Assembly (NCBI GenBank): GCA_018712515.1
Contig: DVGW01000050.1
Location: 1,119 to 65,118, forward strand
Source: Candidatus Aphodovivens avicola
Lineage (GTDB): Bacteria; Actinomycetota; Coriobacteriia; Coriobacteriales; Eggerthellaceae
Reading direction: 5' to 3'
Length of the DNA: 64,000 nucleotides
Shown: positions 593-27,865 of the stretch, one piece after another
How positions within the stretch are numbered: position 1 is the stretch's first letter
Layout: the number at the start of each line of letters is the position of its first letter
Notes under the pieces: model-generated
Database searches by the model: none
Told to the model about the DNA's origin: nothing
What the model saw: the letters and a program-made list of their open reading frames with translations, nothing else
Translations under genes and position numbers: made by a program

Positions 593-2902
593 TCACTCTC
601 CTGGCTTGGTGGTCATCAGCCGGTAGAGCTCCGTGTCCTTCGGGAACCGGTTCACGAACGGCACCAGCGCGCTGCCGTAGCGGAGCAGACCGCAGCCCGC
701 ATCGGCGTTGGTGATGTAGCCCATCTGCTCGCGGCTGATGCTGAGGAGCTTGCCCAGCTTCTCGCGGTCGGCCGCCGCCTGGTTGAGCATCACGATGAAC
801 TCCGAGTTCGACAGCATCGTGGAGGCAAGCACCGAGTCGAGCAGGTACTCCACGTTCTGCGTGATGGCAGTGGGGAACGCGTTGCGCTTGCGGAAGCGCC
901 GCCACGCGCTGTTGAAGAACGCACCCGAGTACTCGTTCTCGAATACGACGTGGAACTCGTCGATAACGATGTGCGTGCGCTTGCCCGCGCGCCAGTTGTC
1001 GGTGACGCGGTTGATCATGGCGTCGGTGATGACGAGCAGCCCCATGGTCTTCAGCTGCCGTCCGAGCTCCATGATGTCGTACACGAGCAGGCGGCTCCTC
1101 GTGTCTACGTTGGTGGGGTGGGCGAACGCGTCCAGCGTGCCCGAGGTGAACAGCTCCAGCGACAGCGCGAGCTCGCGCGCCTCGTCCTCCGGCTGCGCGA
1201 GCAGCTTGTCCCGGAGGTGGACGAGCGTCGGCGGCTCACCGCCGCACAGGTAGTCGGCGTACACGGCGGAGGTACAGCGGTCGACGATGGACTTGGCTTG
1301 TGGCCCGAGCCCCCGACGGTCGAGCTGCTCGAACAGGGAGAGGACGAACTCGCTCTTGTCGGCCACCGGGTTGCCTCCCTCGCCGTAGCCCTCCACCATG
1401 TCCATCGCGTTGATGTGATGAGGGCTGCCCGCAGCTATGCGCACCACCTCGCCGCCAAGGGCCTCGACGAGGCTCGCGTACTCTCGCTCCGGGTCGCAGA
1501 TGATGATGTCGTCGTCGGTGGAGAGCGCCAGCATGGCTATGAGCTCCTTGGTCGAGAAGCTCTTGCCGGATCCCGGCACGCCCAGGATGAAAGCGTTGGG
1601 GTTCAGCAGCCTGGACTTGTCGCAGAGGATGGGGTTGCGGGAGATGGCGTTCTCGCCGAACCACACCCCGCCCTCGTCCATGATCTCCTGCACGCGGAAC
1701 GGCATGAGCACCGCCAGGCTCTCCGTGGTGAGCGTCCGCACCGCGTCTATTCTGCGCAGCCCTATTGGCAGCGCGGTGGACAGCCCGTCGAGCTGCTGGA
1801 AGCGGAGCACCGCCAGGCGGCACAGGTGCTTGCGCGCGCAGGACAGCAGCGCCTCCGTGTCGGCATCGAGCTGCTCGGGGGTATCCGCGAAATGGGCGAG
1901 CGTGACCGTGGCGAGCATCATGCGCTGGTCGCGCGACACCAGGTCGTCGAGGAATTCCCGGCTCTCCTTGCGCTGCTGCTCCATGTCGTAAGGGACGACC
2001 ACGTTGAAGTTCATGTTCGCGTTCTGCCGCCTCGTCCAGTTGGTTATGTTGGTCTCCACGCCGAGCAGCCGCTTCTCCACCTCCCTCACCGCCTCGTCCG
2101 TGGGCACGGGCGACACGTCGATGGAGAGCGCCAGCGGGCGCTTAAGGTCGGTGAGCTCGGACACGAAACCGTCGTCGATATATGAGGCGTAGTCAGCAAG
2201 GTAGAGCACGCGCGCCCACCGTCCGCCTACCTGGAGGCGGTCCGAACGGACCCCCACGCCTTCCGGCGCGACGGCATCCTTGAACGAATGGCCCCTCCGC
2301 ATGCTGGAGCGCATGTCGAAGGCGAACTCCCCGTCGCCCCGGTAGAAGCCATGGAGCAGCCGCAGCTTGTCCTCCGCCCGCAGCTCGTCGCAGCGGGCCC
2401 CGAGGCGGGCGAGGTGCGACCCCATCTCTGCGGATGCGCGGTTGAAGTACGCGCGCGCCTCCTGGACGCCCTTGCGCTCGACCGCAGCGGTCACGTAAAT
2501 CTCCCGCACCACGGCGTCGGCACCGGTCGCCTTCTCCACGAGCATGCCGTTGATCTCGTCCCTGTAGCGGTCGAGGCCGTCGTCCTTGCGGGGGATCAGC
2601 GCGCTCCGCCCGAACGCCTCGGCGTCGAGCCTGCGCACCGCGACGGTGATCTTCGTCTGGGCGTCGGAGTCGAACGAGTTGAGCAGTCCTGAGTAGTCGA
2701 GGAACATCGCTTCCTTGTCCTCCTTGGACGCGGCGGCGTAGTTCACGTCGCTCACCCTCCACGTCTTGGCGAATCGGCGGTCGTCGGTGAGGAACACGCC
2801 GTCGGGCCACACGCGGCGCACGGGCACGGCGTCCTGGGAGGTGCGGGGCGGCTTGAATCGGGCTCCCTTGCCCTTGCGGAGCCTCGTGGAGACGTTAGGC
2901 AC
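593..2902 (-). CDS. VirB4-like conjugal transfer ATPase (T4SS)
   Basis: 769 aa. Walker A GVPGSGKSF, Walker B-like HIVIDEFH. GTG start preceded by GGGAGG. Overlaps the prgI-like stop. Confidence 0.9.
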   Translation of the reverse strand: MPNVSTRLRKGKGARFKPPRTSQDAVPVRRVWPDGVFLTDDRRFAKTWRVSDVNYAAASKEDKEAMFLDYSGLLNSFDSDAQTKITVAVRRLDAEAFGRSALIPRKDDGLDRYRDEINGMLVEKATGADAVVREIYVTAAVERKGVQEARAYFNRASAEMGSHLARLGARCDELRAEDKLRLLHGFYRGDGEFAFDMRSSMRRGHSFKDAVAPEGVGVRSDRLQVGGRWARVLYLADYASYIDDGFVSELTDLKRPLALSIDVSPVPTDEAVREVEKRLLGVETNITNWTRRQNANMNFNVVVPYDMEQQRKESREFLDDLVSRDQRMMLATVTLAHFADTPEQLDADTEALLSCARKHLCRLAVLRFQQLDGLSTALPIGLRRIDAVRTLTTESLAVLMPFRVQEIMDEGGVWFGENAISRNPILCDKSRLLNPNAFILGVPGSGKSFSTKELIAMLALSTDDDIIICDPEREYASLVEALGGEVVRIAAGSPHHINAMDMVEGYGEGGNPVADKSEFVLSLFEQLDRRGLGPQAKSIVDRCTSAVYADYLCGGEPPTLVHLRDKLLAQPEDEARELALSLELFTSGTLDAFAHPTNVDTRSRLLVYDIMELGRQLKTMGLLVITDAMINRVTDNWRAGKRTHIVIDEFHVVFENEYSGAFFNSAWRRFRKRNAFPTAITQNVEYLLDSVLASTMLSNSEFIVMLNQAAADREKLGKLLSISREQMGYITNADAGCGLLRYGSALVPFVNRFPKDTELYRLMTTKPGE

Positions 2903-3260
2903 GGCCGCCTCCCTTCCCGCCGCGGGCGCGCCGGCGCCCAGCGCCCGCGGCGCCGGCGTAGAGGTTCCGGGGCCTCGAGGGGAGCTCCCTCGGGGTGAGG
3001 AGCTCCGACTTGACCCACGCCCACGCCGCGCGCTCCGCCGTCATCCCATGCCAGGTGACGAATCCCAGCGCCGCGAACGGCGCGGCGCCCAGCACGCAGA
3101 TCCAGGAGAGCGTCTCCAGCCCCAGCCAGGGCGACAGGCCGAAATACAGCCCGACTGCGGTGGCGCACGCCAGGACGGCGAACGCGCACTGCCGCAGCGA
3201 GAGGCCGAAGAACACCCCCTCCGTGTAATCCCGTATCTCCCGGTTGACCTTCACTTCCAT
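2895..3260 (-). CDS. PrgI family small membrane protein of Gram-positive T4SS
   Basis: 121 aa. N-terminus REIRDYTEGVFFGLSLRQ followed by two TM helices. RBS AAAGGAG before ATG 3260. Confidence 0.8.
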   Translation of the reverse strand: MEVKVNREIRDYTEGVFFGLSLRQCAFAVLACATAVGLYFGLSPWLGLETLSWICVLGAAPFAALGFVTWHGMTAERAAWAWVKSELLTPRELPSRPRNLYAGAAGAGRRRARGGKGGGRA

Positions 3261-3284
3261 GCGAGTCTCCTTTCATCGGCATAG

Positions 3285-3293
3285 TGATATAAT
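3285..3293 (+). promoter_or_regulatory. Extended -10 promoter element TGaTATAAT for the plus-strand cassette
   Basis: Exact TGnTATAAT read at 3285-3293, 46 nt upstream of ATG 3339. The 10-bp perfect palindrome TGTACGTACA at 3303-3312 lies between it and RBS GAAGGAGG (3320-3327). Confidence 0.5.
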
Positions 3294-3338
3294 GCGAACA
3301 GTTGTACGTACATGTGAAAGAAGGAGGCTTTCCCTCAC

Positions 3339-3785
3339 ATGAAGCTTTCTTTTGAGATTCCAAACGACGCAGACGGGTTCTCCCCTGCTCAGTGCCCGTT
3401 ATGCAGCGAAAGGTTTGCTATCGACCCCGTTGAGGCAGAAAGCGAATCGGTTCTCGAGATCAGATGCCCAAAATGCGGAATGGCATCTGATACCTTCATC
3501 CCAGAAGAAATCGAGGAAGCCATTGAGGCGCGAATCGGCAATGCCGTTATAGACGCAATAAACAAAGAGATGAAAAAAGCCGAAAGAAGAAGCCGGGGCA
3601 AAGCTGTGCGTTTCAGGGCGAACGAAATCAAGTCGAAGCCCGAACCGAAGATTATCCCTGAAATAAGCGATCTTGATGTCGTTTTGTGCGCGCATTGCCG
3701 CAGACGTTCAAAGGTGTCCGCGTCCCTGTCGTTCTCAGCATGGACATGTCCGTATTGCGGGGTGACCAATTTCAATGAGCAATGA
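3339..3785 (+). CDS. Double zinc-ribbon protein, function unknown (cargo gene 1)
   Basis: 148 aa. CxxC pairs at C19/C22 + C43/C46 and C117/C120 + C137/C140 flank a K/R-rich segment. Lower GC than the flanks. Opposite strand to the T4SS operon. Confidence 0.6.
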   Translation: MKLSFEIPNDADGFSPAQCPLCSERFAIDPVEAESESVLEIRCPKCGMASDTFIPEEIEEAIEARIGNAVIDAINKEMKKAERRSRGKAVRFRANEIKSKPEPKIIPEISDLDVVLCAHCRRRSKVSASLSFSAWTCPYCGVTNFNEQ

Positions 3786-4593
3786 TACGACCTTGAGAAA
3801 GACACTTTTCCTCTTTCATGCGCAGGCGAGCCGATTCATGAGATCGACGTCCGGCCAGTTTAAGGAAAACCTTGCGACATTCCTCAGGTTCCTTGAGGAA
3901 GAGCCCATGATCTGCGAGTACGTTAATGGCTGCCTGGATATTTCGACGATGAGCGAAGCCGATGCCGAATCCATGGTAGATCGTGCAAGGCAAAGCGCAT
4001 GGTCGCCGTTCGAAGTGGTCGGAGGGACCACCGAAGACGAAGTTGCCAGGATACTGTTTATTCTTCGCGACATGAGGCGAAGGGGGATCGATGGCGCCGA
4101 TCTTTTCTTCTACAGGTACGGACACGGCTCGAGGAAATACGATGTCATGGTGGGAAACTTCCTTAAAGAAGTCGCTTTCCTCCTTATCGAACATATCGAG
4201 AACCACCTAAAGATGAAGGGGATCGAGATGGGTTTAGACCAGAAAGGCCAGCAAATCGTCACCGTCGAGGGGTCAAGCGACGTGCAGATAGTGGCGGCAT
4301 CAGGATCGGCGTCAATTACCGGCAACCAGTCGTTCGTATCGTCCAATCCTGAAATCGAAAACGAAATTGCCGCTCTGCGGGAAATCGCCATGTCTCTTGC
4401 CGAGGAGGACAAGGGGATGGTTCTTTACAACGTACAAGTGCTAGAGGAGCAGGCGAAGTCGGGGCATCCTGTAAAGGCTGCAGTTGCAACGGCTCTCGGT
4501 GCGATTAAGAAAGTAGGCTCCGCTTGTGCCTCCAGCGCACAGGTTCTTGCCCTCGTTGATAGGATAGAGGAGTTTTTCAGCCCCTTTTTCTAA
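3775..4593 (+). CDS. Hypothetical soluble protein, 272 aa (cargo gene 2)
   Basis: ATG 3775 overlaps gene 1 by 11 nt, which suggests translational coupling. No TM segment and no motif I can assign. Lower GC than the flanks. Confidence 0.6.
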   Translation: MSNDTTLRKTLFLFHAQASRFMRSTSGQFKENLATFLRFLEEEPMICEYVNGCLDISTMSEADAESMVDRARQSAWSPFEVVGGTTEDEVARILFILRDMRRRGIDGADLFFYRYGHGSRKYDVMVGNFLKEVAFLLIEHIENHLKMKGIEMGLDQKGQQIVTVEGSSDVQIVAASGSASITGNQSFVSSNPEIENEIAALREIAMSLAEEDKGMVLYNVQVLEEQAKSGHPVKAAVATALGAIKKVGSACASSAQVLALVDRIEEFFSPFF

Positions 4594-4598
4594 GCCTC

Positions 4599-5438
4599 TC
4601 ACAGCCCCATCATCTCCCGCACCACGCGGTCGGCCATCCTGACCATGCCCGTGAGCACCAGCATGTTGAACACGAGTTCGCCGACGTAGGACCACACCTG
4701 GGTCACCACGGGCGCCTCGGCGTCCACCACGGGGGGCGCCGAGGCGAACAGCGAGAAGATCACGCAGGCGAGCAGGATGACCGCGCCCTCCAGGCATACC
4801 GCCCCGTAGCTCTTGAGGAATGCCTTGCCGACGGACTGGCTCGGCTCCCCGGCGAAGGTGGACAGGGGTATCGGCGCGAGCGCGGTGTACATATATATCT
4901 TGAAGAACCTGCCGTAGACCGACAGGATCATGACGAACGAGAGCACCGTGATGAACAGGCCGCCGAGCAGCGTGACCGCCCAGAGCGGTATGGAGTTGAG
5001 GAAGTCCACTCCTTCGATGGCTTCTATCATCTCGGGCGGCAGCGCGCTCGGAGACGTCGAGGAGAACCCCACGGCGTCCATCATCGACGCTATGAGACCC
5101 TGCACCACGTCGAGGAACGCCATCATGAGCTCCAGCCCGTACACGACGGCTGCGTGGGCCAGCACGAACCTCACGAAGAGCTTCAGCACGACTTCAGGGC
5201 GCTTGACCTCGGTGAAGGAGCCGCAGGTCTTCACGAGGCCCGACAGGAAGAACAGGACGAGCAGCGCGATTCCCACCGCCTGCACGGCGCCGTGGATGGA
5301 GAGGATCGCGTCCCAGATCCCTCCGCCCTTGAACTCGGAGGGAGCCGCGGTGAGCAGTCCCACTATCTCGCCCATCTTCTCGTTCCATGTGTCGAGCGCG
5401 CCCTGGAGGTTGTGCACTATCCAGTTGTCGGATTCCAA
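4599..5438 (-). CDS. Polytopic T4SS membrane protein (VirB6/TrbL-like role)
   Basis: 279 aa with about 6 hydrophobic helices. TTG start with RBS AAAGGAGG. Placed between Maff2 and PrgI as in Gram-positive ICEs. Confidence 0.6.
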   Translation of the reverse strand: MESDNWIVHNLQGALDTWNEKMGEIVGLLTAAPSEFKGGGIWDAILSIHGAVQAVGIALLVLFFLSGLVKTCGSFTEVKRPEVVLKLFVRFVLAHAAVVYGLELMMAFLDVVQGLIASMMDAVGFSSTSPSALPPEMIEAIEGVDFLNSIPLWAVTLLGGLFITVLSFVMILSVYGRFFKIYMYTALAPIPLSTFAGEPSQSVGKAFLKSYGAVCLEGAVILLACVIFSLFASAPPVVDAEAPVVTQVWSYVGELVFNMLVLTGMVRMADRVVREMMGL

Positions 5439-5814: not shown

Positions 5815-7620
5815 CTATTCTCCTTCCTTTGCTCCCGCCGCCTCGGCGGCGAGAAGCTCTTCCGTTTCGGTCTCGTCGAGGACGACGGCGCCTCCGGTCG
5901 ACTGGAGGACGGGTGCGGCGGGGGCCGGAGGGGCGCCCGCCGCCACGCTGGCGGTCGCCCTGTCGCACCTTCCGTGCTCGTAGGGGGCCGCCCCTCCGGC
6001 GGCGGTGAGGCGCGCGTTGGGGTGGCGCGATATGTCCAGCTTGAAGTCGAGCATGGGACGCTCGCCGCGCACGAACAGCAGCGCGCGGGAGTTGTCGAGC
6101 ATGCACACCTCGTCGGAGGTCATGAGCTCGCGGCCCGCGATCTGCTGGTTGGTGGACCAGCTGCCGCCCCGTCCGGTGCTCTTCGCGTGCGTGTCCAGGT
6201 CTATGGTCTCCTTGCCCAGCAGCTCGCTTACGTACTTGTGGGTGGACTGCTCGTTTCCGCCCAGGTACAGGAACTCGTCGCAGTTGCCCACGATGGACTC
6301 CCACTGCTTGTCGAACAGCGCCTTGATCTGGGCCATGTTCTGGATGATGATCGACGCCGACACGCCGCGGCCGCGCATGGTGGACAGTATCTTCTCGAAG
6401 TCGTCGGGCAGGCTCACGTTGGCGAACTCATCCATCAGGAAGTGCACGTGGACGGGCAGCTGGCCGCCGTACTTGCCGTCGGCGAGCGCGAACAGCTGCT
6501 GGAACAGCTGGGTGTAGAGCATTGACACGATGAAGTTGAAGCTGGTGTCGTTGTCGGGTATCACCGCGAACAGGGCCGCCTTCCGCTCGCCGAGCGAGGG
6601 CAGGTCGAGCTCGTCGGCGGCGGTGAGCGACGCCAGGCCGTCGAGGTTGAACTTCTCGAGCCTCGAGGCGAGCGTCACCTGGATGGATTTGAGGGTCTTA
6701 GCCGATCCCGACCGGTAGCTACGGTAGTACTTCAGCGCGATGTGGCCGGGGTCCCTCATCTCCAGCCGGTCGAACAGCTCGTCGAGGACGGACGCGTAAT
6801 CGTCGTCGTCCTCGCGCACCTCGCCCGCGCGCAGCATCTCCATGAGGGTGGCGTAGTTCTGCTCCTCGGGCGGGGCCTCGTGCTTCAGGTAGAGCAGCAA
6901 CGCCAGGTGCAGCATGCCCGCGGCCGTGTCCCAGAAGGGGTCCTGGCTCTGCGAGCCCTTCGGCGTGGTCGCCTTGAACAGGTTGGTGTTGAGCCGCTGG
7001 GCGTCGGCGTCGTCGCGCACGTAGGCGAGCGGGTTGTAGCAGTGCGACCTGCCCATGTCCACGAGGTCGAGCACCCTCACCTCGAAGCCCTTGGCCTCGA
7101 GCAGGCCGCCCACGGTGCGCACGATCTCGCCCTTGGGGTCGAGCACCACCATCGACACGTTTCCCTGCGCGGCGTTGGGCAGGCAGAACCCGCGCGTCTT
7201 GCCCGCGCCGGAGCCGCCCACCACGAGCGTGTTCATGGACCTGCGGTGCGCGTGCGTGTCGTAGCTCATGCGGAAGCTGCGGGTGAGCAGCTTGTCGCCG
7301 GAGGGGTCGCGCCCGCGGTATCGCCGGGCTATGGCGCGCGGGTCCCCCCACTCGGCGCTGCCGTGCTCCTCGCCGGGACGCAGGTTTCTCCTGGTGAGCA
7401 GATACGCCCCCGCGCACGCCGCGTAGACGGCGGCGAACAGGGCGGCGCAGCGCGCGCTGCCCGGGACGAGCCCGGCCGAAAGCGGGTCGGCGAGGGACGC
7501 CGCGAGCGCGGGGAGCGAGAGCCCGCCTTCGAGCGCGGGCGCGACGACGAGGCCGGCCAAGGCGGCGAGGGGCGTGCCCGCCGCCCAGGCGGCGACCTTC
7601 CCCGCCGAGGGCCGCCTCAT
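5815..7620 (-). CDS. Type IV coupling protein (VirD4/TraG family)
   Basis: The track ORF 5815..8406 is trimmed to ATG 7620 (MRRPSAGKV), which overlaps the upstream stop as ATGA. N-terminal TM helices, Walker A VVGGSGAGKT, Walker B FLMDEFAN. Confidence 0.9.
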   Translation of the reverse strand: MRRPSAGKVAAWAAGTPLAALAGLVVAPALEGGLSLPALAASLADPLSAGLVPGSARCAALFAAVYAACAGAYLLTRRNLRPGEEHGSAEWGDPRAIARRYRGRDPSGDKLLTRSFRMSYDTHAHRRSMNTLVVGGSGAGKTRGFCLPNAAQGNVSMVVLDPKGEIVRTVGGLLEAKGFEVRVLDLVDMGRSHCYNPLAYVRDDADAQRLNTNLFKATTPKGSQSQDPFWDTAAGMLHLALLLYLKHEAPPEEQNYATLMEMLRAGEVREDDDDYASVLDELFDRLEMRDPGHIALKYYRSYRSGSAKTLKSIQVTLASRLEKFNLDGLASLTAADELDLPSLGERKAALFAVIPDNDTSFNFIVSMLYTQLFQQLFALADGKYGGQLPVHVHFLMDEFANVSLPDDFEKILSTMRGRGVSASIIIQNMAQIKALFDKQWESIVGNCDEFLYLGGNEQSTHKYVSELLGKETIDLDTHAKSTGRGGSWSTNQQIAGRELMTSDEVCMLDNSRALLFVRGERPMLDFKLDISRHPNARLTAAGGAAPYEHGRCDRATASVAAGAPPAPAAPVLQSTGGAVVLDETETEELLAAEAAGAKEGE

Positions 7621-8483
7621 CGCGCGTCCGATCTCTCGCGGCCCCGCTCGGGCGGGGCCATCCTGTCGGACAGGTCGCGCGCGGCCCTGCCGATCTCGTC
7701 GAGCGCGGCCCGCACCTCCCGCGCATCCGCCCCCGGCGGGGCGGGGGGCGCCAAGGCGGCGGGCTCGCCGAGGCCGAGGCGCCGGGCGACGATGTTCGCG
7801 GCCAGGTCCGCCTGCGCCGCGCGGGCGTCCCGGTCGTAGCCCTCTCCGCCTCGGGCCATGGCCGCATGCGCCGCCTCCGTCGTGAGCGCGCGGAGCAGCT
7901 GCGGCTCGTCGAGGCCTCGCTGCACCCGGATGACGCCGGCGGCGTGGTCGTATTCCGCGGAGGGCCCGCCGAGATCGTCCGAGGGCTCTATCCTGGCGGG
8001 AGGGTGGGATACGAGGGAGGCGAGCGCGGCGTGGGGGTCGGCTTTGCGCGGCAGGCGGGCGCGCGCGGTCGTCTGCGAGACGTCGAACACCTTGCGCACG
8101 TCGTACAGGACTCCGATGCTCCCGTCGTCGCGCACGTACTCCTTCGTGGGCTCTATGATGTGGATGGCCTTCTCCCCGCGTTTCACCGCCGCGCCCAGTC
8201 TCCGCCAGTGGTCGGCGGTGCCGACGCGCGTCGCGCCCGGCATCCTGTCGGCTATGAGCAGGATGTTGGTCGCGGAATGGTGCGGGAGCGCCGCGGCGAC
8301 GCGCAGGTACGATTCGAGCGCGGCCGGGTCGGAGTTCGCCCGGAGGGCGGCGGCGTCCGCCCGCGCGAACGCCTCCTGCCGCTCCTGCCGCTTCCGCTCC
8401 GCCCACGCCCGCTTGTCGAAGGGCTGGGCCCCCGGCGGGCCCTCCGCCCGCGTCCCCATCATCTCGTAGATGTCGCTTTCCAT
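7617..8483 (-). CDS. ArdC-N (DUF1738-like) ssDNA-binding domain protein
   Basis: 288 aa. The pattern HWRRLGAAVKRGEKAIHIIEP...VFDVSQT matches the ArdC N-terminal domain signature. Confidence 0.7.
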   Translation of the reverse strand: MESDIYEMMGTRAEGPPGAQPFDKRAWAERKRQERQEAFARADAAALRANSDPAALESYLRVAAALPHHSATNILLIADRMPGATRVGTADHWRRLGAAVKRGEKAIHIIEPTKEYVRDDGSIGVLYDVRKVFDVSQTTARARLPRKADPHAALASLVSHPPARIEPSDDLGGPSAEYDHAAGVIRVQRGLDEPQLLRALTTEAAHAAMARGGEGYDRDARAAQADLAANIVARRLGLGEPAALAPPAPPGADAREVRAALDEIGRAARDLSDRMAPPERGRERSDAR

Positions 8484-8486
8484 GGG

Positions 8487-9215
8487 CTACCTTCCTTTCT
8501 CCGCTGCGCGCGGCCTCGCCCCGCGCCCGCCCGCCGGCGCCTTCCTGCCGGCGGCGATGGACGCCATCTCGGCCCTGACCGACGGCTTCCCCCCGTTGCG
8601 GGGGATCGGTTCACCAGCCCCTCCTGATGGCCGACTTCTCCCGGATGTAGGCTCTGACCGAGTCCCTTTCCCCGGGCGGTCTGCTAAAGGGGCGCCGCCC
8701 TCCTTCGCCGGAGGGGCGAGCAGGTCCTCGAGAGAGGGGGCGTCCGTGGCCCGATGAGGGCTCGGCACCTCCGGCTCGGGCGCGCTCTCCGAAGGTTCCC
8801 CGGGGCCGTTCCGGCTTCCTGGCCCCCTCGGGGGCGCGTCGCGGGCGACGCGGGCGAACCCGTGCCGCTCGGCTATGCGGTTCACCTTGCTCGCGTCCTC
8901 GGCCCGCACCAGCAGGTCGACCGATTCGGAATCGTCCTTCTGCTTGACGACGGTGTACACGATGCCGTAGCGGCGCGCCTCCCGGGCGAAGGTGCCCAGG
9001 TCGGCGCGCCGTATCGGGAACACGCGCAGCTCCTTGCCCGACCGGAGGAGCGCGGCGAGCCGCGCCTTGCCGCGCGTCTTCTGGCTGCTCGCCATCGCGG
9101 CCGCCAGCATCGCGGCGGCGTCCCTAGCGCCCGCTCCCGTGATGCGCAGCGCCACCTCGGCGCCTTGGAGGGTCATGCGCACGATCTGGTCAGCGGCTTC
9201 GCTCGATGCGTCCAT
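8487..9215 (-). CDS. PcfB family (DUF3801) protein
   Basis: 242 aa. N-terminal region QIVRMTLQGAEVALRITG...LRVFPIRRADLGTFAREARRYGIVYTVV is typical of PcfB. Low-complexity tail. Confidence 0.8.
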   Translation of the reverse strand: MDASSEAADQIVRMTLQGAEVALRITGAGARDAAAMLAAAMASSQKTRGKARLAALLRSGKELRVFPIRRADLGTFAREARRYGIVYTVVKQKDDSESVDLLVRAEDASKVNRIAERHGFARVARDAPPRGPGSRNGPGEPSESAPEPEVPSPHRATDAPSLEDLLAPPAKEGGAPLADRPGKGTRSEPTSGRSRPSGGAGEPIPRNGGKPSVRAEMASIAAGRKAPAGGRGARPRAAEKGR

Positions 9216-10539
9216 GCTCTGTCTCCTTCCTTTCCGTTTCGTCCCGCCCGCCGCGCTCGACCTCCGCGATGCGCCGCGCGAGCCCCGGGCCCCTTTCGCG
9301 GATGCCGTCGCAGAGCCCCAGGTCCCGCCTGATGCCCTTCAGCTCCGCGGCGATTTCCGCGATCCGCGGGTTCGGCGCCGCCGGCTCTCCCCGCGCCCTG
9401 CGGAGGCGCCTCGCCTCGTTTCGCAGCGCGCGCCGTTCGCCGTCCAGGGCCGCCATGCGCTCTTTGAGCGCCTCTTCGTGGGCGAGTAGCTGCCCCTCCG
9501 TCTCGATCCCGTTTTGCGTGAGCAGCGCCAGCTCTCGCGAGATCGCGTCGAGGTTGCGGAGGTCCTCGCGCAGCAGGAAGTGCATGCGGGGGCCGCCCGC
9601 GCCCTGGCGGCGCGGAGCGTTGAGCATCGCCATGTAGCGCCGGTACAGGCTCACGAGGGAGCGGGCCGGGACGGGCGTGGGCTTCGCACGGGTCGGTCTG
9701 GGTCTGCCCACTGGCAGGCGGGGGCGGGCGCTCGAGAGGATGCGCGCGGATATGCCTTCGTAGGAATACCCGTCCCCGAAGTTGCGGCGCAGGCGTACGA
9801 AGCGCTCCTTGCCGGGCGGGCGCACGGAGATGTCCTTGCCCGTCTTCACCTCGTAGCCCATCGCCCGCAGGTTCGCGTAGAACTGGCGCATGGTGGACGC
9901 GCGCGCCACGGCCTCGTCCGCGTCGGCCTTCACGAGGGAGCGCCACGTCGGCCTGCCGTCGCGCTCGGCGCGCCACTCCGCGTAGTGCCTCGACCTCCCC
10001 GGCTCCGGGCGGTCGACCACCGACAGGCCGCGCCCCCGGCACAGCCTGTCGGACGCGCCGCGCATGGCCCGGTAGCAGGCGGTATCGCGGTGGAGGCGCC
10101 TGCCGTCGGCGAAGGAGACGGAGTTGATGACGAAGTGGTTGTGCAGATGCGCCTTGTCCAGGTGCGTGGCCACCACCACCTCGAACCGCGCGCCCCACAG
10201 TTCCCGCGCGAGCGCCACCCCGATTTCGTGCGCGGTCTCGGGGTCTGCCTCGCCGGGCGCGAACGCCTGGTAGCCGTGGAACGCGACGATGCCGCCCTCC
10301 TTGCCGTACTGCCGCTTGGTGGCGTTCATCTCGGCGAGCGCCGTCTCGGGCAGGCAGTTGACGCCGGAGACGTAGCGCTGCTCCTCGGTCTTGCCGGGGT
10401 CCGCGGCGTAGAGGATCGCGGCGCCAACGCCCTGGCGTTCCCACTCGTCGGGCGCGCCCTCGGTCTTGGCCGGGTTCTCCGCGTAGCCCAGCACGCGGGC
10501 GAGCCGCCCCTCCACCTTCCATATCGAAGTGACGGCCAA
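9190..10539 (-). CDS. Relaxase/mobilization nuclease
   Basis: 449 aa. His cluster HLDKAHLHNHFVINSV. TTG start after GGAAGGAGGGG. Sits directly downstream of mobC. Confidence 0.85.
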   Translation of the reverse strand: MAVTSIWKVEGRLARVLGYAENPAKTEGAPDEWERQGVGAAILYAADPGKTEEQRYVSGVNCLPETALAEMNATKRQYGKEGGIVAFHGYQAFAPGEADPETAHEIGVALARELWGARFEVVVATHLDKAHLHNHFVINSVSFADGRRLHRDTACYRAMRGASDRLCRGRGLSVVDRPEPGRSRHYAEWRAERDGRPTWRSLVKADADEAVARASTMRQFYANLRAMGYEVKTGKDISVRPPGKERFVRLRRNFGDGYSYEGISARILSSARPRLPVGRPRPTRAKPTPVPARSLVSLYRRYMAMLNAPRRQGAGGPRMHFLLREDLRNLDAISRELALLTQNGIETEGQLLAHEEALKERMAALDGERRALRNEARRLRRARGEPAAPNPRIAEIAAELKGIRRDLGLCDGIRERGPGLARRIAEVERGGRDETERKETEHGRIERSR

Positions 10540-10540
10540 T

Positions 10541-10870
10541 TCAGCCCCTCCTTCCCGGCTCCTTGACCGCCGCAGCTATCTCGGCGAGCGCGGCCTCCAG
10601 CTTCCGCGCCTCGGCGTCGTAGCGCGCGGCGTCCACGACGTTCAGGACATGCGCCTTGCGGGCTATCTGGTTGAGGTTGCTCCCTATCGCATGCAGCTCG
10701 CGCGCCATCGCCAGGTAGTCGGGCGGGGGCTTGGGCTTCGGCTCGATGCCGCCTATGAGCGCCCGCAGGTATGCCTCCTGCGACCAGCCCGCCGCCCCCG
10801 CGGCCGCCTTCAGCCGGGCCAGCTCGTCCTCGGTGAGCCTCACCGTCGCCTTCCGCGTCCGTCTTTCCAC
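10541..10870 (-). CDS. mobC: MobC relaxosome accessory protein
   Basis: The track ORF is trimmed to GTG 10870 (RBS GGAGG, 7-nt spacer). 109 aa with the RLTEDELARLK...ELHAIGSNLNQIARKAH MobC signature. Confidence 0.8.
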   Translation of the reverse strand: MERRTRKATVRLTEDELARLKAAAGAAGWSQEAYLRALIGGIEPKPKPPPDYLAMARELHAIGSNLNQIARKAHVLNVVDAARYDAEARKLEAALAEIAAAVKEPGRRG

Positions 10871-12026: not shown

Positions 12027-12659
12027 ATGACGACTTCGGTCGAATGGGATTATTTCCTGTCAATCGAGGAGGACTTCATTAGGACGATTCCCTTCGTTGA
12101 GCCTCGCGAAGGAAACTTCGACACCTATTCAACGCAATATGCGAAGATTCTCCTTGCGGCCGCTTCCGAAACGGATACGGTGCTGAAGCGACTGTGCAAG
12201 ACGATCGATCCCAGCTGTAGGAAAAAGAGTGAGCAGGGCTATCGCGAGTTCTTGGTGAAGGGGAAAAGAGTTCCGCTCTTAAACGCCAAAGCGAAGTCTT
12301 TGCGTTTTGGCCTGTCCTCCACGCCTTGGGCAAGCTATGATTTCGACAATCCTCAGACTCCCGAATGGTGGACCGCATACAACAAGGTCAAGCATCATTT
12401 GGACGAAGGTTTCCGCAGGGCAACGCTTCGAAATACTTTCGATGCGATATGCGGCCTTTTTGTATCGCTGCTGTTTCTGTATGAAACGGAGGGGCTTCTC
12501 CAACTATCCCCCGCACCTCGGCTTCTCGATGTTGAGGAGGGGTTCAGGGCAAAGAGGACCCGCTTGATAAGCACCGAAGAAACGGCATTGTTGCTCATTG
12601 CAAATCTTCCAGATGACCGACGTAAATTATTCGAGGACGCCTTCTCTGGCCCATCCTAA
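12027..12659 (+). CDS. Hypothetical protein, 210 aa (lower GC). Candidate nuclease or abortive-infection-type cargo.
   Basis: RBS AAAGGAGGAGG before ATG 12027. Lower GC than the flanks. The 3' end overlaps the convergent C5-methyltransferase gene by 33 nt. Contains WWTAYNKVKHH. No secure family. Confidence 0.6.
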   Translation: MTTSVEWDYFLSIEEDFIRTIPFVEPREGNFDTYSTQYAKILLAAASETDTVLKRLCKTIDPSCRKKSEQGYREFLVKGKRVPLLNAKAKSLRFGLSSTPWASYDFDNPQTPEWWTAYNKVKHHLDEGFRRATLRNTFDAICGLFVSLLFLYETEGLLQLSPAPRLLDVEEGFRAKRTRLISTEETALLLIANLPDDRRKLFEDAFSGPS

Positions 12660-13997
12660 AGCCCCCTCTATCCGCCGCCCGATCCATGCGATGACCGGGA
12701 CTGCCATGGAGTTGCCCAAGGCCTTGTAGCGCTGGGTGTCGGGGGCTGGTTTGCCTCGGTATTCCACGTCGGTCCACCCGTCGGGGAAACCTTGGAGCCT
12801 CTCGCATTCGACCGGCGTCAGCCGTCTCACGGCAGGCCCCTGCATCACGTGGCTCGCCTGCTTCGTCCCGGGCTGCGCGGCGAGCGCGCCCACGTGGTCG
12901 CCCGACTCGCCGACCAGCCTCACCTCGTCGCGGACGTTCTGGGAGAATGCGGCGACGGGTCCGATGTTCGCCGGCGACCCGCCTACTTTCAGCGCCCCCG
13001 CGAGCTCGATGTCGCACGAGGCGTTGGCCGAGTCGCCGGAGAGGCACGCCATCGGCGGCCCCTTCGCGGAGCACGCCGTCATGCACCCGCACAGCTCCTC
13101 CGACGCCGACGCGTTGGGGTTCGTCGAGGCGATTCCCAGCACCCTGGGTTCGGTCGCCCCGCCGGGAATGGCGACGGCGTGGCGGTCCGCGGCGGTGAGC
13201 GTGTACATCCCCGATTCGTCGGGATCGCAGAACCCGGCGCCGTTGCCCCCGGCGGTATCGCTGCGGTCTATGACGTTGCCCACGATCCCGAAGCACACCG
13301 CCGGGCAGCGGCCCGCGGTCACGGTCGGCGAGCGCTCGTCGGAGTATCCCACCCCCTTCGCGGCTGCGGAGGCGTTGAACTTGAAGCCTGCCGCTCCAGC
13401 GCCCCCTCCAGCTGCGCGGGCAAGGGCCGCCCTCTTTTCCTTGCTCGACGGAGTATCCCAGCGCAGGCCCTCGCGCTCAAATAGTATTTCGCAGGCACGG
13501 GCCGCGTCTCCAAGCACTCCGACAAGAAAGACACGCTCGCGTCTTTGGGCCAGGCCGAAAAACTGCGCGTCCAGAATTCTCCACGCCAAACCGTACCCGA
13601 CCTCATCCATCTCCCTGAGCAGGAGTCCGAAAGCCTTCCCGCCCTCGCACGAGAGCGCTCCCGGCACGTTCTCCCACACGAAGCATCGAGGACGGATCTC
13701 ACGTACAGCCCGAATGTACTCGAGCATGAGGCCGGATTCGCCCGAGAGCCCCGTCCGGCTTCCGGCGACGGAGAAGCTTTGGCAGGGGCTCCCCCCGATG
13801 ACGACGTCCGTTTTCCCATGCAGCTCCTTCCAATCGACTTCGCGTATATCGCCCAGGTTGGGCACGTGCGGGAAACGCGCCGAGAGCACCGCGCGGCAGA
13901 AGGGGTCGATCTCGCTGAAGGCGACCGCCTCCCACCCGAGCGGGCCCCATGCGCAGCTGGCGGCCTCGATCCCCGAGAACAGGCTCACGTACCTCAT
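12627..13997 (-). CDS. DNA (cytosine-5)-methyltransferase
   Basis: Trimmed to ATG 13997 (MRYVSLFSGIE), overlapping the upstream stop as ATGA. Motifs FSGIEA (I), GSPCQSFS (IV), ENVPG (VI), GNSMAVPV (X). Confidence 0.9.
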   Translation of the reverse strand: MRYVSLFSGIEAASCAWGPLGWEAVAFSEIDPFCRAVLSARFPHVPNLGDIREVDWKELHGKTDVVIGGSPCQSFSVAGSRTGLSGESGLMLEYIRAVREIRPRCFVWENVPGALSCEGGKAFGLLLREMDEVGYGLAWRILDAQFFGLAQRRERVFLVGVLGDAARACEILFEREGLRWDTPSSKEKRAALARAAGGGAGAAGFKFNASAAAKGVGYSDERSPTVTAGRCPAVCFGIVGNVIDRSDTAGGNGAGFCDPDESGMYTLTAADRHAVAIPGGATEPRVLGIASTNPNASASEELCGCMTACSAKGPPMACLSGDSANASCDIELAGALKVGGSPANIGPVAAFSQNVRDEVRLVGESGDHVGALAAQPGTKQASHVMQGPAVRRLTPVECERLQGFPDGWTDVEYRGKPAPDTQRYKALGNSMAVPVIAWIGRRIEGALGWAREGVLE

Positions 13998-14656
13998 AGC
14001 CCCGCCGCCCTTCGCAGGGGGACCTCGCGCTCGCACACCTCCACGATGTGCTGGCACAGCTCGTCGGGTATCCGGCCGCGCTCCCTCGCGTTCGCCAGCC
14101 CCTGCGTGCCCGTCTTCGACCCGCGCGGGGCCGGCTCGTGGCAGGGTGCGCCGTTCCTGCAGGGCGGGCGGAAGGCCGGGTCGGAGGCGTTGGTGAAGAT
14201 GTCGGTCGGCTTCATCACGCGCGCGCCGTACTGGCAGTAGGTGACGGTGTGGCGCGGGACGATCGCCATCATGTCCTGCTTGCGCAGGCCCGCCCGGGGG
14301 TTCTCGATGAAGTAGAGCGCCGGGCGCAGGTCGCGGATGAGGCGGAGCATGGCGAGGTCAACTCGGTCGCATTTGAGGGCGTATTCGCTCACCGCGTCCA
14401 AGTTGCCCGTGTTGGCGTTTTTCCTCCTGTGGCGGGAGATTCCCGCCATGGAGAAGGTTGCGCAGTCCGGCGACGCCCAGATCACGTCCGGGGCGCCGAA
14501 CATCCATATGACGTCTCGCGGCTTCAGGAACTCGATGTCGGCGTGCAGGTCGGCGGGAAGCGACTCGTCCCACTCCACCGAGAAGACCTCGTGGCCGCGC
14601 GCCTCGAAAGCCTTGCCGATGGAGCGCGTGCCGCTGAAAAGTTCAAGGACCTTCAT
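13994..14656 (-). CDS. Small C5 DNA methyltransferase-like protein
   Basis: 220 aa from ATG 14656 (RBS GAAGGAG). Motifs LELFSGT, ASPDCATFS (PC motif), IENP. Confidence 0.7.
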   Translation of the reverse strand: MKVLELFSGTRSIGKAFEARGHEVFSVEWDESLPADLHADIEFLKPRDVIWMFGAPDVIWASPDCATFSMAGISRHRRKNANTGNLDAVSEYALKCDRVDLAMLRLIRDLRPALYFIENPRAGLRKQDMMAIVPRHTVTYCQYGARVMKPTDIFTNASDPAFRPPCRNGAPCHEPAPRGSKTGTQGLANARERGRIPDELCQHIVEVCEREVPLRRAAGL

Positions 14657-15362: not shown

Positions 15363-18300
15363 CTATCTCTCCATAAGGAGCTCCTTCTCGACGGGCCTTC
15401 CATCTTCGCCGCCATCGCAGAGCAGCTCGGGGCCTCCCTTCCCCATGTCGAGGAGGGCGTCGAGCTCGGCGAGGCGGGCGGACTTCTCCCTCAGCCGCTC
15501 TTCATGGGGGAACGGCTTCGAGGCCTCCTCCCGGGCCGCGGCGAGCTGCCTCCTCGCCTCGTCGGCCTTCGCGCGGCAGTCCTCCAGCTCGCGCGGGATC
15601 CTCGCCATCGCGTTGTCGATCCTCGTTACGATTCCGGAGGGGTCGGATCCCATGGCGCACCTGTGGCGCGCGTCACCGACGATGACGACCTCGAACGCGG
15701 CGTCGACGCGGTTGAAGTAGAGCTCGAGCGAGAACCCGCGGTACGCGCCCAGGGGCTCGCTCCGAGCGTCCGCCGCCAGGCCGCATGCGGCGATGATCGC
15801 CTCGCCTGCTGCGGCGCGCCCGCTTTGCACCGTTCCGCGGACCTCCATGAGGAACGCTTCCTTCGCGGGCGGCGGGTTGGCCCGCGCCCTCTCCGCGTCG
15901 GCCTCCAGCTTCTCGGCCTGCGACGCGAGGGCCGCTATCCGCTCCGGGTACTCCCTCGCCGCCTTGTCCTCCAGCGCGTATCTCTGGGCGAGGTGGTCCG
16001 CCTTCAGCACCCTCAGGCGGGACACCTCCACCTCGAGGTCCATCCTCTCCTTTATGAGCGGGTTTCCCGTGGCGAGCGCCTTCAGCTCGGCGTAGGAGAG
16101 CGCCGCCTCATCCACGTCGGACGCCGACCTCACGGGCGACTTCGAGGTCATGACCTGCCCGATGAAGCGCTGCTTGCCCTCGACCACCTGGTACAGGTAC
16201 GCATCGAAGGTGCCCTCGGTCACGTAGCGGTACGCTTCGACCTCCTCGTTCATGTTCCCCTGGCGCTCGATGCGGCCGAGCCGCTGCTGGAGGTCGGCCG
16301 GCCGCCACGGGCAGTCGAGGTCGTGAATCGCGACAAGCCGTCGCTGCACGTTGGTCCCCGCGCCCATCTTCTGCGTCGAGCCCATGAGGATGCGCACCGC
16401 CCCGGAGTTCACCCTGCCGAAGAGCGCCAGCTTCTTCGCCTCGGTGTCGGCGTCGTGGATGAAGGCGATCTCATCATCGGGCACGCCCCGCTCCACGAGC
16501 TTGCGCCTCAGGTCGTCGTACACGCTGAACCCCGCGCCGCCCTTCGGTGTTGACAGGTCGCAGAACACGAGCTGGGTGAGGCGCTCGTTCGCTCCGTCGC
16601 GCCAGATGCGCAGGACGTTCTCCACGCAGGCGTTGACCTTGCTGCCCGCGAAATCGGGCAGGTCCGGGTCTTGGAGCCTCTGGTCAAGGGCGATCTTGCG
16701 CCCGTCGTTGGTTATGAGCAGCATGTTGTCCTTCTCGGCGGGTACGCGCCCGGCCCTCACCGCGTCGGCGCGCTCCGCGAGCCCCGCCACCAGCTCGCGC
16801 TGGATCGGCGACGGCTGGACGGCCACGCTGCGCAGGCGCACCCTCGGGACGGGCAGCTCCAGCATGTCTGCCGTCTGCACGTCGGCGACCTGCTTGAACG
16901 TCGCCATGAGCTCGGGCAGGTTGTAGAAGCGCGAGAACCGCGTCTTCTGGCGGTAGCCGGTGCCTTCCGGGGCCAGCTCCAGCGCCGTCACCGTCTCGCC
17001 GAACGTCGAGGCCCAGCAGTCGAAGTGGGACAGCCCCAGCCGTTCCAGCTCGCCGTACTGGAGGTAACGCTGCATCGTGTAGAGCTCCGCCATGGAGTTC
17101 GACACCGGGGTGCCCGTGGCGAACACGGTGCCGCGCCCGCCGGTCTGCCGGTCGAGGATGCGGCACTTCATGAACAGGTCGGAGGACTTCTTGGCCTCGC
17201 TCTGGGCGATGCCGCCGACGTTGCGCATCTTGGTGTGGAAGAAAAGGTTCTTGTAGTAGTGGGCCTCGTCGACGAAGATCCGGTCGACGCCCAGTTCCTC
17301 GAAGGTGAGCACGTCGTCCTTGTCCGACTGGTCTGCCAGCTTGGCGAGCCTGGCCTCCAGCCGCTTCTTGGTCGCCTCCATCTGCTTTACGCCGAAGCGC
17401 TCGCCCCTCTGCGCCTTGAGGTCGGAGATCCCGTCGGCTATCTCGGCTATCTGCTCCTCGATGAACGCCCGCTGGCGATCCACCGAGACCGGTATCTTCT
17501 CGAACTGCGTGTGCCCGATGATCACGCCGTCCCAGTCGCCCGACGCGATGCGCGCGCAGAACCGCTTGCGGTTCTGCCTTTCGAAGTCGCGCTTCGTCGC
17601 CACGAGCAGGTTCGCCGCCGGGTAGAGGCGCATCCATTCCGAGGCCCATTGCCCGGTGAGGTGGTTCGGCACGACGAACGTCGGCTTGCTGCACAGCCCC
17701 ATGCGGCGAAGCTCCATCGCCGCCGCGGCCATGGTGAACGTCTTCCCCGCGCCCACTTCGTGGGCGAGGAGCGCGTTGCCGCCGTAGAGGATGCGCGCAA
17801 CGGCGTTCCTCTGATGCGGCCTCAGCTCGATCTCGGGGTTCATCCCGGGGAACCGGAGATGCGACCCGTCGAACTCGCGCGGCCTCGTCGAGTTGAACCT
17901 CTCGTTGTAGACGGCCGTCAGCCGTTCGCGGCGGGCCGCGTCGGAGAAGACCCATTCCTTGAAGGCGGACTTGATAGCGTCCTGCTTGGCGAGCGCCACC
18001 GCGGTCTCCTTCCTGTTGAGCACCGCCTTCTTCCTGCCGTTCTCGTCCTCCGTGTAGTCGACCACGCGCGCGTCCTTCAGGTTGAGGGTCTCCTCGATGA
18101 TCTGGTAGGCGCTCATGCGGCGGGTGCCGTAGGTCGACAGCGCCCGCACGTTGGAGCCGTCGCGTCCCTTGCCCTCGATCCGCCACTGCGCCGTGACGGC
18201 CGAGTACCGCACCGCGATGCGCTCGCGCACCCAGTAGGGCGGCTCCAGGAGCTCGATGATGAAGTCCCGCACGTCGTCGGGCGGGATCCACGTCGCGCCG

Positions 18301-21395: not shown

Positions 21396-21495
21396 TGCGC
21401 CGCCTCCTTCGGGTGCGTTTGTTCGGTTCGCAGGGATGCCCCGCCTTGCCGCTCGGGGTAGAATCCGGGAGCCCGCCGTTCCGAGGGAGGTTCCC

Positions 21496-21627
21496 ATGAG
21501 GTTGAAGCTCGTTTTGAAGGTTCTCGTCGCCGTGGTCGCGGTCGCGCTGGCGGCCTACGTCTGTCTCGTCGCGTTCGGGGTGTACACCGCGCTCGACAGC
21601 GCCACGGCGGGATACTCCGCCCGCTAA
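21496..21627 (+). CDS. Small hydrophobic peptide, 43 aa (candidate)
   Basis: RBS GGGAGG 5 nt before ATG 21496. MRLKLVLKVLVAVVAVALAAYVCLVAFGVY is a single TM helix. It is antisense to the leader of the polyvalent gene. Confidence 0.35.
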   Translation: MRLKLVLKVLVAVVAVALAAYVCLVAFGVYTALDSATAGYSAR

Positions 21628-25034: not shown

Positions 25035-25976
25035 TCATCGGTCAAGGCCGCGTTTCCTTTCCTGCCTCTCCAGCAGCTCCAACCCCCTCACAATCCGCTC
25101 CTCGATCGTCTCGCGCGATGCGTCAGGCTTGAAGAAGCGCGCTATCTTGCTTCTGGGCATTCGGAAATGCGCGGTCTGGTTGGGCTTGCTCTCCTCCATG
25201 ATGGACCGAATGAGGGCGGGAGTGAGGGCGCCCTCCTCCGCGCAGCGCCTCATTCTGATCGCCTGCGCATGAGACGGAGTGCTCACCTGCTCCTCAATGG
25301 CTCGGTAAAGGGAAAGCTGCTCCGGCTTGGAGAGATAGCTGATTTCCACGGCGGGCCTCATGCCGATCGACCCTTCGTCAACCATATCGAGCAGCTCGGG
25401 AAGCAGCTCGGTCAGGCGGATGTAGCGGCGAATCTGACTCGCGCTCTCCCCCGACTCCCTCGCCACGAGGTCCCGCGCCTTGGTTCCGCGCAACTTGTGT
25501 TCCGATGGAACACAAGTCAGGTCCGTGCGATGCCCCTGCCGCTTCAGAGCCTCGAGCTTCATCTTGTACGAGAACGCCTTTTCGCTCGGCAGGATCCGCT
25601 CGCGCTGCATGTTGGCATCGACCATCGCCACTATTGCCTCGTCGCGGGTCATCTGCCTGACCACCGCAGGCACCTCGGAAAGCCCGGCGCGCTCTGCGGC
25701 GCGCTTTCTCCTGTGCCCGCTCACCAGCTCGTAACGACCGTCCTCCTTCGGGCGAACCGTCAGCGGGGTGAGGATTCCGACCGAGGCGACGCTGGCGACG
25801 AGGTCGGCCATGTCGTCATCGTCTCTGACGTGGAAGGGATGGTCCGGAAAGGGGTCGATCAGGGAAAGGGGAATGTCCGTCACCTTCTCCCGCAGGGCAT
25901 CGTCCCTTTCTTCCTGGTCGGTGAACAGCTCATCTACAGACGGCAGATTGAAGGGTATCTCTCTCGCGCGGGGCAT
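25035..25976 (-). CDS. parB: ParB/Spo0J family partition protein
   Basis: ParB-N motif LVSGHRRKRAAERAG. ATG 25976 is preferred over TTG 25982 on RBS spacing. Confidence 0.85.
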   Translation of the reverse strand: MPRAREIPFNLPSVDELFTDQEERDDALREKVTDIPLSLIDPFPDHPFHVRDDDDMADLVASVASVGILTPLTVRPKEDGRYELVSGHRRKRAAERAGLSEVPAVVRQMTRDEAIVAMVDANMQRERILPSEKAFSYKMKLEALKRQGHRTDLTCVPSEHKLRGTKARDLVARESGESASQIRRYIRLTELLPELLDMVDEGSIGMRPAVEISYLSKPEQLSLYRAIEEQVSTPSHAQAIRMRRCAEEGALTPALIRSIMEESKPNQTAHFRMPRSKIARFFKPDASRETIEERIVRGLELLERQERKRGLDR

Positions 25977-27733: not shown

Positions 27734-27795
27734 GCTGGGAGAGCATCACGTTCGCAACGTGGGGGCCGAGGGTTCGAATCCCTTCATCTCCACCA
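27734..27795 (+). tRNA. 5'-truncated tRNA-Ala(CGC) copy (3' ~62 nt only), probably the attR core
   Basis: D-loop 3' half GCTGGGAGAGC. Anticodon arm TCACG/TTCGCAA/CGTGG. Variable loop GGGCC. T arm GAGGG/TTCGAAT/CCCTT. Acceptor 3' strand CATCTCC (U70) plus ACCA. The expected 5' strand GGAGATG and the 5' D-stem are absent upstream. Confidence 0.7.
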
Positions 27796-27803
27796 TGGAG
27801 ACC

Positions 27804-27836: not shown

Positions 27837-27865
27837 CGTTCGGGATCCGAAGGGATTCGAACCGT

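Follow-up and report, generated by a model that had tools for sequence, protein, structure and literature searches.

We report here on a two-gene cassette that lies inside the conjugation operon of an integrative and conjugative element (ICE), in a stretch of DNA from 'Candidatus Aphodovivens avicola' (Eggerthellaceae; contig DVGW01000050.1 of GenBank assembly GCA_018712515.1) that has a length of 64,000 nucleotides and is referred to below as the window. The pair of genes is already catalogued as PDC-M14, a candidate anti-phage system, and the segment that carries it is a horizontally acquired, optional cargo of the ICE. We consider it somewhat better than an even bet (a probability of about 0.55) that the cassette is an anti-phage or anti-invader accessory module, resident in a cargo hotspot of an ICE of the Eggerthellaceae (Gordonibacter), where it would benefit the bacterial host of the element.

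The first gene of the cassette, open reading frame 1 (ORF1; positions 3339-3785, plus strand), is predicted to encode a protein of 148 residues with two Cys4 zinc ribbons, and the second (ORF2; 3775-4593, plus strand) a protein of 272 residues. The two reading frames share 11 nt and run antisense to the operon for the type IV secretion system (T4SS) of the ICE. They diverge from a gene of the PrgI family (2895-3260, minus strand; Pfam PF12666, 4.7e-27) and converge with a gene for a TrbL/VirB6-like membrane protein (4599-5438, minus strand), such that the stop codon of ORF2 (4591-4593) is 5 nt away from the stop codon of the latter. A preliminary description of this locus, drawn up without database searches, had placed two overlapping plus-strand genes within a minus-strand conjugation operon and had noted the close approach of the convergent stop codons; the coordinates, the overlap, the 5-nt distance and the flanking genes were all confirmed. 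The same description had been unable to match the pair to any described system, and on this point it is refuted. In PADLOC-DB v2.0.0, ORF1 is matched as PDC-M14A (PDLC04447, E 2.3e-42, residues 2-143 against positions 5-150 of a 152-position profile) and ORF2 as PDC-M14B (PDLC04450, E 3.9e-190, residues 7-272 against all 266 profile positions, 1-266), both full-length, and ORF2 also matches five further PDC-M14B models. The two genes have the layout that defines the system, in that A is upstream of B, adjacent to it and on the same strand.

PDC-M14 is one of 145 candidates that were nominated through "guilt-by-embedding" from cassettes located within BREX, DISARM or type I restriction-modification (R-M) loci, in a set described as untested and put into PADLOC as candidates (Payne et al., bioRxiv 10.1101/2024.01.29.577857). 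Its entry in Table S8 of the same report reads CAS_00078, FAM_02625>>FAM_00494, count 247, "Assign as candidate PDC-M14". The pair in the window lies between prgI and trbL and is thus outside the BREX, DISARM or type I R-M surroundings by which the system was nominated. This does not exclude it from PDC-M14, because the PADLOC hidden Markov models also cover non-embedded homologues (Payne et al., bioRxiv 10.1101/2024.01.29.577857). The model PDLC04450 was probably built from the very Gordonibacter cluster to which ORF2 belongs, since its length of 266 equals that of the RefSeq version of the ORF2 protein and the score amounts to about 2.4 bits per residue. Follow-up validation papers have covered other PDCs only. 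What the current analysis adds to the catalogue is modest: the stand-alone, antisense placement of the pair in a hotspot of a T4SS operon, the existence of natural empty-site controls, natural fusions of A to B, a corrected start for ORF2 and the finding that the latter has no structural relative.

The evidence that the cassette is an acquisition comes from copies of the ICE that lack it. Proteins identical to those of the pair are found in Gordonibacter urolithinfaciens, Gordonibacter sp. An230 and 'Candidatus Aphodovivens avicola', with ORF1 on at least 162 contigs, and each of the 10 distinct contexts in which the identical ORF1 was located is the TrbL|PrgI junction of this ICE. Copies of the ICE were gathered by look-up of the exact PrgI protein, which returned the same ICE from many samples; most of these copies bear the identical cassette, and the identical PrgI protein is found in cassette-bearing and empty copies alike. 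Assembly GCA_009755015.1 is one example that has the cassette. Two empty-site loci (L003 and L010) have trbL, a short GC-rich spacer and then prgI, with no cassette between them. Their flanks, aligned over 5.9 kb and 3.3 kb, match the window at 99.1-99.8% identity. Comparison of the two loci with the window by blastn sets the breakpoints at 3280|3281 and 4602|4603, and the acquired segment (3281-4602, plus strand) consists of 1322 bp in place of a 92-bp GC-rich spacer. Neither a target-site duplication nor terminal inverted repeats nor bracketing direct or inverted repeats were seen at the insertion. The base composition of the cassette is equally distinctive. The segment 3275-4602 has a GC content of 0.512, against 0.678 and 0.650 in its 2-kb flanks, and no other 1328-bp window anywhere in the 64 kb falls below it (mean 0.664, standard deviation 0.039). 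GC at third codon positions (GC3) is 0.55 and 0.62 in the two cassette genes as compared with 0.83-0.94 in the T4SS genes. The proposal that the cassette is a foreign insertion, which had been made from its low GC content, is therefore borne out by the cassette-free copies with nearly identical flanks, by a GC content that is the minimum of the window rather than normal for it, and by the variable presence of the cassette at the prgI/virB6 junction of homologous ICEs. A second, milder stretch of low GC (about 0.553) exists at ~26400-27900 of the window, around a ParA-like gene (25930-27333, minus strand) and just past its upstream end.

The junction at which the cassette resides has served repeatedly as a slot for cargo, including at least one established abortive-infection system. 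A scan of metagenomes with TrbL produced 80 loci at 66-100% identity, in which the gap between TrbL and PrgI was measured. Most of these gaps measure 16-18 nt or 107-198 nt, and in about 13 of the 80 loci the gap extends to 419-2190 nt and holds other cargo. PDC-M14 is at the junction in one locus only (L072, with a 100% identical TrbL) and is absent from the other 79. The other cargo includes AbiLi plus AbiLii in two loci (L125:2216-4186 and L148:4981-6945; PADLOC 1.4e-90 and 3.1e-17; Pfam AAA_21 and RloB), with a GC content below that of the flanks; a Phd/YefM and ParE pair accompanied by a 154-residue membrane protein (L143); DUF3560 proteins (L099 and L141); and unlabelled proteins of 228 and 177 residues without an assigned family (L123 and L138). 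The presence of AbiL at the same junction shows that the slot carries defence cargo, and AbiL and Phd/ParE together bear out the earlier suggestion that this is a site for cargo of the defence or addiction kind. The borders of the slot are the TrbL/VirB6-like gene on the left and, on the right, the PrgI-family gene, which has kept its own ribosome-binding-site (RBS) region. We also observed that, in many Bacillota-type relatives of the ICE, those 185-198-nt TrbL-PrgI spacers that were inspected harbor a small Cys-rich ORF of 56-64 residues (…CDCRYCLYYGGRRKG…ADECVC…), as at L091:2720-2890, L110:4845-5039 and L118:4845-5030, for which no Pfam or PADLOC match was obtained.

Outside of this ICE, the PDC-M14 family is widespread and is found in other genetic settings. 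A word-indexed protein search retrieved the identical Gordonibacter clusters only, and the relatives were reached by an exhaustive search, which yielded 146 representative clusters (50% identity) at E 1e-3 or better; the nearest cluster outside the window's own is 33% identical. One alignment of the family (A1) was too diverse for back-translated locus searching, and another (A2) was used in its place. When one genome per species was scanned, 59 loci were found, almost all of them in Clostridia or other Bacillota. A lies immediately upstream of B in about 53 of these 59 loci, with an overlap of 14 nt, or of 11 nt in the closest relatives. In addition, four representatives of 411-447 residues (P0023, P0031, P0040 and P0041) are natural fusions of A to B, whose N-terminal ~150 residues align with ORF1 and retain every ribbon cysteine. 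The reading of the two genes as a pair in the preliminary description gains support from both observations. The fusions, as Rosetta-stone evidence, and the conserved overlap indicate that A and B form an obligate pair and function as a unit; they are probably translationally coupled, and the existence of a single polypeptide in some lineages, along with the overlapping genes, argues that the two proteins would act as one complex.

The conserved overlap also bears on the start of ORF2. Both the overlap and the family alignment support the ATG at 3775 over the public calls, which place the start at TTG 3793 (266 residues, RefSeq) or at internal ATG codons (251 and 228 residues, metagenome gene calls). 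Some public records leave ORF1 uncalled. Two loci show departures from the usual arrangement. In one (L066) an insertion of ~3 kb with two related ORFs, probably a mobile element, interrupts a PDC-M14B homologue (658-996 and 3997-4539). In the other, a single Christensenellaceae genome (L060), two A-B pairs occur 6 kb apart (9544-10780 and 16167-17665), and the second is a divergent subtype with a 354-residue B that may correspond to the 335-336-residue proteins P0193-P0195.

The neighbours of the pair were surveyed by clustering the genes around 58 loci of other species, with no preselection of context, and scanning them with PADLOC and Pfam. In 19 of the 58 loci A-B is located between pglX and pglZ of a type 1 BREX system, with brxA, brxB, brxC and brxL around it, and in another 17 it is between hsdM/S and hsdR of a type I R-M system. 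Neighbours in the remaining loci include GmrSD/HNH with an EcoRI-type methylase, N6 or N4 methylases (orphan methyltransferases), or an AAA protein with an S8 peptidase; plasmid copies of the pair are near an Abi family protein or an integrase. The gene for the fusion P0041 (L164:4372-11204) is beside a PycTM-domain gene and ABC-3C-type components (CTD10, MC6, DUF2326) among insertion-sequence elements, in surroundings that look like a defence island. A recognised T4SS context was found for 0 of the 58 loci, and no homologue was found in 50,697 phage records. These results show a strong association of the family with BREX operons, type I R-M operons and defence islands. A Schlafen AlbA_2/HATPase_c_4/wHTH gene accompanies the pair in 16 loci, mostly directly after B; such a module has been described as a BREX-embedded backup effector (PMC12839542). 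In L041, L043, L046, L053, L054 and L057, among others, it is a gene of ~480 codons directly 3' of B. Because this gene follows A-B within the pglX-pglZ interval of many BREX loci, the two embedded modules can be said to share a slot.

The sequences of the two proteins provide some clues to what each might contribute. All four CxxC pairs of the two Cys4 ribbons described earlier for ORF1 are present, as is the Lys/Arg-rich linker between them, which follows a helix and has a net charge of +5 over residues 76-115. In an alignment of 35 family members the invariant residues are P8, D10, G13, C19, C22, C43, C46, C120, C137 and C140. P8, D10 and G13 form an N-terminal I-P-x-D-x-x-G-[YF] motif; the first ribbon is marked by C19, C22, C43, P44, C46 and G47, and the second by C120, C137, C140 and G141. 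Most relatives have "CC" at positions 119-120, where ORF1 has C117-x-x-C120. Public records name ORF1 a "TFIIB-type zinc ribbon-containing protein", and searches of Pfam, NCBIfam and PHROGs returned only generic zinc-ribbon matches below threshold. The protein is a member neither of NCBIfam anti_R_Lar (12.3 bits, cut-off 39.6) nor of Pfam Zn_ribbon_Com (13.7 bits, cut-off 22.9). The best sequence or profile match of A in the PDB, to bL33, is at the level of noise (E 0.045).

Protein B has no match in Pfam, NCBIfam or PHROGs. Its AlphaFold2 model, based on a 50-sequence alignment (pLDDT 78, predicted TM-score 0.54), has an all-alpha N-terminal domain (residues 1-151) and four C-terminal helices (192-271), joined by a linker (155-189) that is conserved in sequence, contains short strands and is modelled with low confidence. 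Foldseek searches with this model gave best E values of 0.99 in the PDB and 0.24 in BFVD, with TM-scores of 0.2 or less for the best matches, in line with the earlier remark that B resembles no recognised family. The invariant or near-invariant columns of the B family (I46, E89, L97, Y115, F129, I141, L145, G153 and P232) are mostly hydrophobic, and the family alignment exhibits no Walker, HEPN, PD-(D/E)xK or other catalytic pattern and no nuclease or NTPase signature. Several more specific assignments were considered and rejected. A HEPN RNase is not indicated, as B has neither a conserved Arg/His pair nor an R-x(4-6)-H motif. A transmembrane or pore-forming C-terminal helix is not indicated either; the maximum Kyte-Doolittle value over 19 residues is 1.16 in this copy of B and exceeds 1.6 in only 10 of 50 relatives. 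The best sequence or profile match in the PDB, to CSN8 (E 0.088), is noise.

The acquired segment also brings with it some potential signals for expression. An extended -10-like element, TGATATAAT (3285-3293, plus strand), is 46 nt upstream of the ORF1 ATG, and no second TGnTATAAT exists in the window on either strand; a Shine-Dalgarno-like GAAGGAGG (3319-3326, plus strand) can be read directly 12 nt before that ATG. Both motifs had been noted in the preliminary description. A scan for two-hexamer promoters identified no complete -35/-10 combination on the plus strand and no -35 partner for TGATATAAT; expression of the cassette might nevertheless start from this putative extended -10 promoter. 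The 10-bp perfect palindrome TGTACGTACA (3303-3312) is likewise where it had been reported, but the operator role given to it lacks statistical support: the window contains 1.78 such perfect 10-bp palindromes per kb, so that this one by itself is not above chance. A hairpin that would sequester the RBS was rejected, being no better than shuffled sequence (z = -0.96). On the minus strand, and inside the acquired segment, a promoter-like TTCACA-18-CATTAT (3289-3318) points to prgI. It might, speculatively, re-supply transcription to prgI-virB4 downstream of the insertion; it was detected by a consensus scan only, with 9 of 12 matches, and the 1 site found compares with 0.9 expected by chance. 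No terminator was predicted between the convergent ORF2 and trbL, and no Rfam family was matched in positions 2800-5000. Antisense transcription could inversely couple expression of the cassette to the activity of the T4SS operon.

Taken together, these observations can be accommodated by a scheme in which the PDC-M14 cassette has replaced the short spacer at the TrbL(VirB6-like)|PrgI junction of the ICE and its two genes would be transcribed antisense to the T4SS operon from an extended -10 promoter of their own. Protein A might be the subunit that senses or recruits, with its zinc ribbons and its basic linker engaging a nucleic acid or protein of the phage. Protein B might be a non-enzymatic effector or scaffold that acts stoichiometrically, by binding or oligomerisation, rather than by catalysis. 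Several considerations weigh against the assignment of an anti-phage role. Neither a BREX nor a type I R-M system was seen beside the cassette in this ICE, and any function that depended on one of them would not operate here; nor was a BREX or type I R-M gene found among the annotated ORFs of the window. Neither protein has a recognisable effector domain, and AlphaFold2 modelling of the natural fusion P0041, as a proxy for the A-B complex, gave a pLDDT of 57 and no usable interface. The literature that was searched does not mention PDC-M14 in any main text, so no experimental test of it was found. In an independent study, 4 of 8 candidate systems (seven PDCs and HEC-01) protected E. coli from phage, which makes membership in the PDC list roughly a coin-flip prior for a measurable phenotype.

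Other functions for the pair must be weighed against this one. It could be an addiction module of the toxin-antitoxin type, with one partner that inhibits growth and another that neutralises it, which stabilises the DNA that carries it (the ICE, or the BREX and R-M operons) and does not stop phages. The compact two-gene operon with overlapping frames and its own putative promoter would suit such a module, and a Phd/ParE pair does occupy the same ICE junction in L143; the distinction from an anti-phage role is also blurred, as many toxin-antitoxin systems double as abortive-infection systems. We nevertheless think this unlikely, if conceivable, in that neither protein matches a toxin or antitoxin family in Pfam or NCBIfam, A (148 residues with two zinc ribbons) is unlike typical antitoxins, natural A-B fusions would be unusual for a toxin and its labile antitoxin, and the palindrome that might have served as an operator is not significant. 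Alternatively, the pair might be an anti-defence factor or modulator of methylation-based immunity that adjusts or blocks the activity of BREX and type I R-M systems, and thereby aids the establishment of the ICE in new hosts. Conjugative elements commonly bear anti-restriction genes, and the association of the family is exactly with two systems, BREX and type I R-M, that are based on methylation and depend on S-adenosylmethionine (SAM). Both proteins are acidic as well (median isoelectric points of 4.9 and 5.2), and ORF1 has marginal matches to families of Lar-type restriction-alleviation proteins and Com-type regulators. These matches are, however, far under the cut-offs (E 0.15 and 0.0042, respectively), and an inhibitor that is co-directional with, and tightly packed into, the BREX or R-M operon of its own host would be self-defeating. 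The pair is also present in islands without BREX or R-M, has 0 copies in the phage records searched and is, in this ICE, inside the T4SS operon on the opposite strand, unlike the anti-defence genes of leading regions. We regard this alternative as improbable, and as less attractive than an addiction module.

The cassette lies within the T4SS operon, where it converges with trbL and diverges from prgI; its transcription would be antisense to the T4SS genes, and no terminator was predicted. This location might also suggest an accessory function in conjugation, such as entry exclusion or regulation of the operon. Such a role is largely refuted by the pattern of presence and absence, and we assign it very little weight. 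The cassette is missing from ICE copies with 99.1-99.8% identical flanks and from all but one of the 80 related ICE loci, the family is without a recognised T4SS context in 58 loci of other species, and the GC content is foreign. The preliminary description had itself raised the alternative of a housekeeping T4SS accessory, with which a cassette that is not conserved among copies and relatives of the ICE does not agree.

A more elaborate and frankly speculative model can be formulated as well, one that we would hold only as a long shot. PDC-M14 might be a new, non-enzymatic two-protein guard of methylation-based immunity with an unprecedented all-alpha effector fold, in which A-B would sense the counter-measures that are directed against BREX and R-M, such as Ocr/ArdA-type DNA mimics or the depletion of SAM, and would respond by aborting the infection. 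The copy in the ICE would then have been captured as a stand-alone sensor, and its antisense wiring might allow induction of the transfer genes to silence the cassette by transcriptional interference.

In the rest of the conjugation region, the gene for a VirB4-like ATPase (593-2902, minus strand) flanks prgI, and the gene for the T4SS coupling protein (5815-8406, minus strand) is on the other side of trbL, both as annotated with Pfam. The 279-residue TrbL/VirB6-like product matches TrbL_2 weakly here (Pfam, 0.0041), and unmarked TrbL_2 matches are on record for the same product. Beyond the coupling protein there are genes for a DUF3801 protein, a relaxase, NikA/MobC, an orphan C5 cytosine DNA methyltransferase (12627-14057, minus strand), a 2044-residue SNF2/ResIII-type protein (15363-21497, minus strand) and ParA. 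The methyltransferase and the SNF2/ResIII protein, both carried by the ICE, possibly have anti-restriction or establishment functions. In the relaxase region, two overlapping ORFs of 449 residues each occupy different frames of the minus strand (9173-10522 and 9190-10539). The latter is probably the real relaxase gene, because the frame at 9173-10522 has a GC3 of only 0.52 and no Pfam match.

The current views of ICE biology are not overturned by these results, as defence cargo in ICE hotspots is to be expected. The PDC-M14 family is nevertheless widespread. Most of its members lie in operons for BREX or type I R-M in gut Bacillota, and for its larger protein, B, no relative was found in solved structures or in predicted viral ones. 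In the Gordonibacter ICE the pair exists naturally as a stand-alone copy with a putative promoter of its own, and natural isogenic ICEs without it also exist, which would make this element a handy entry to functional study. The TrbL|PrgI junction, as a hotspot for AbiL, ParE/Phd and PDC-M14 in a large family of gut ICEs, should also be useful for the mining of defence cargo.

In comparison with known systems, protein A shares a Cys4 zinc-ribbon motif with Mu Com, Lar and the TFIIB-type ribbons, from which the names in its public annotation are taken, and differs from them in having two ribbons, a P-x-D-x-x-G N-terminus, a helical and basic linker and a constant partner in B. The PDC-M14 relatives occupy the same niche as PrrC, BrxU and other embedded systems, that is, the hsdS-hsdR or pglX-pglZ interval, often beside the Schlafen/HATPase/wHTH module; PrrC is an anticodon nuclease and BrxU a GmrSD-type nuclease, whereas PDC-M14B has neither a nuclease or NTPase signature nor a structural relative. 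AbiL (the AbiLi ATPase plus the AbiLii RloB/TOPRIM protein) is a positional analogue, being likewise a two-gene cassette of lower GC at the same junction in L125 and L148, but it has no sequence relationship to PDC-M14, possesses recognisable domains of the ATPase and TOPRIM types and runs in the same direction as the T4SS genes. The nearest match of all is the catalogue entry for PDC-M14, with which the pair shares the order of A then B, their adjacency on one strand and full-length matches of both proteins; that entry derives from pairs located within BREX, DISARM or type I R-M loci, whereas the pair described here stands alone in the T4SS operon of an ICE, antisense to it and with a putative promoter of its own.

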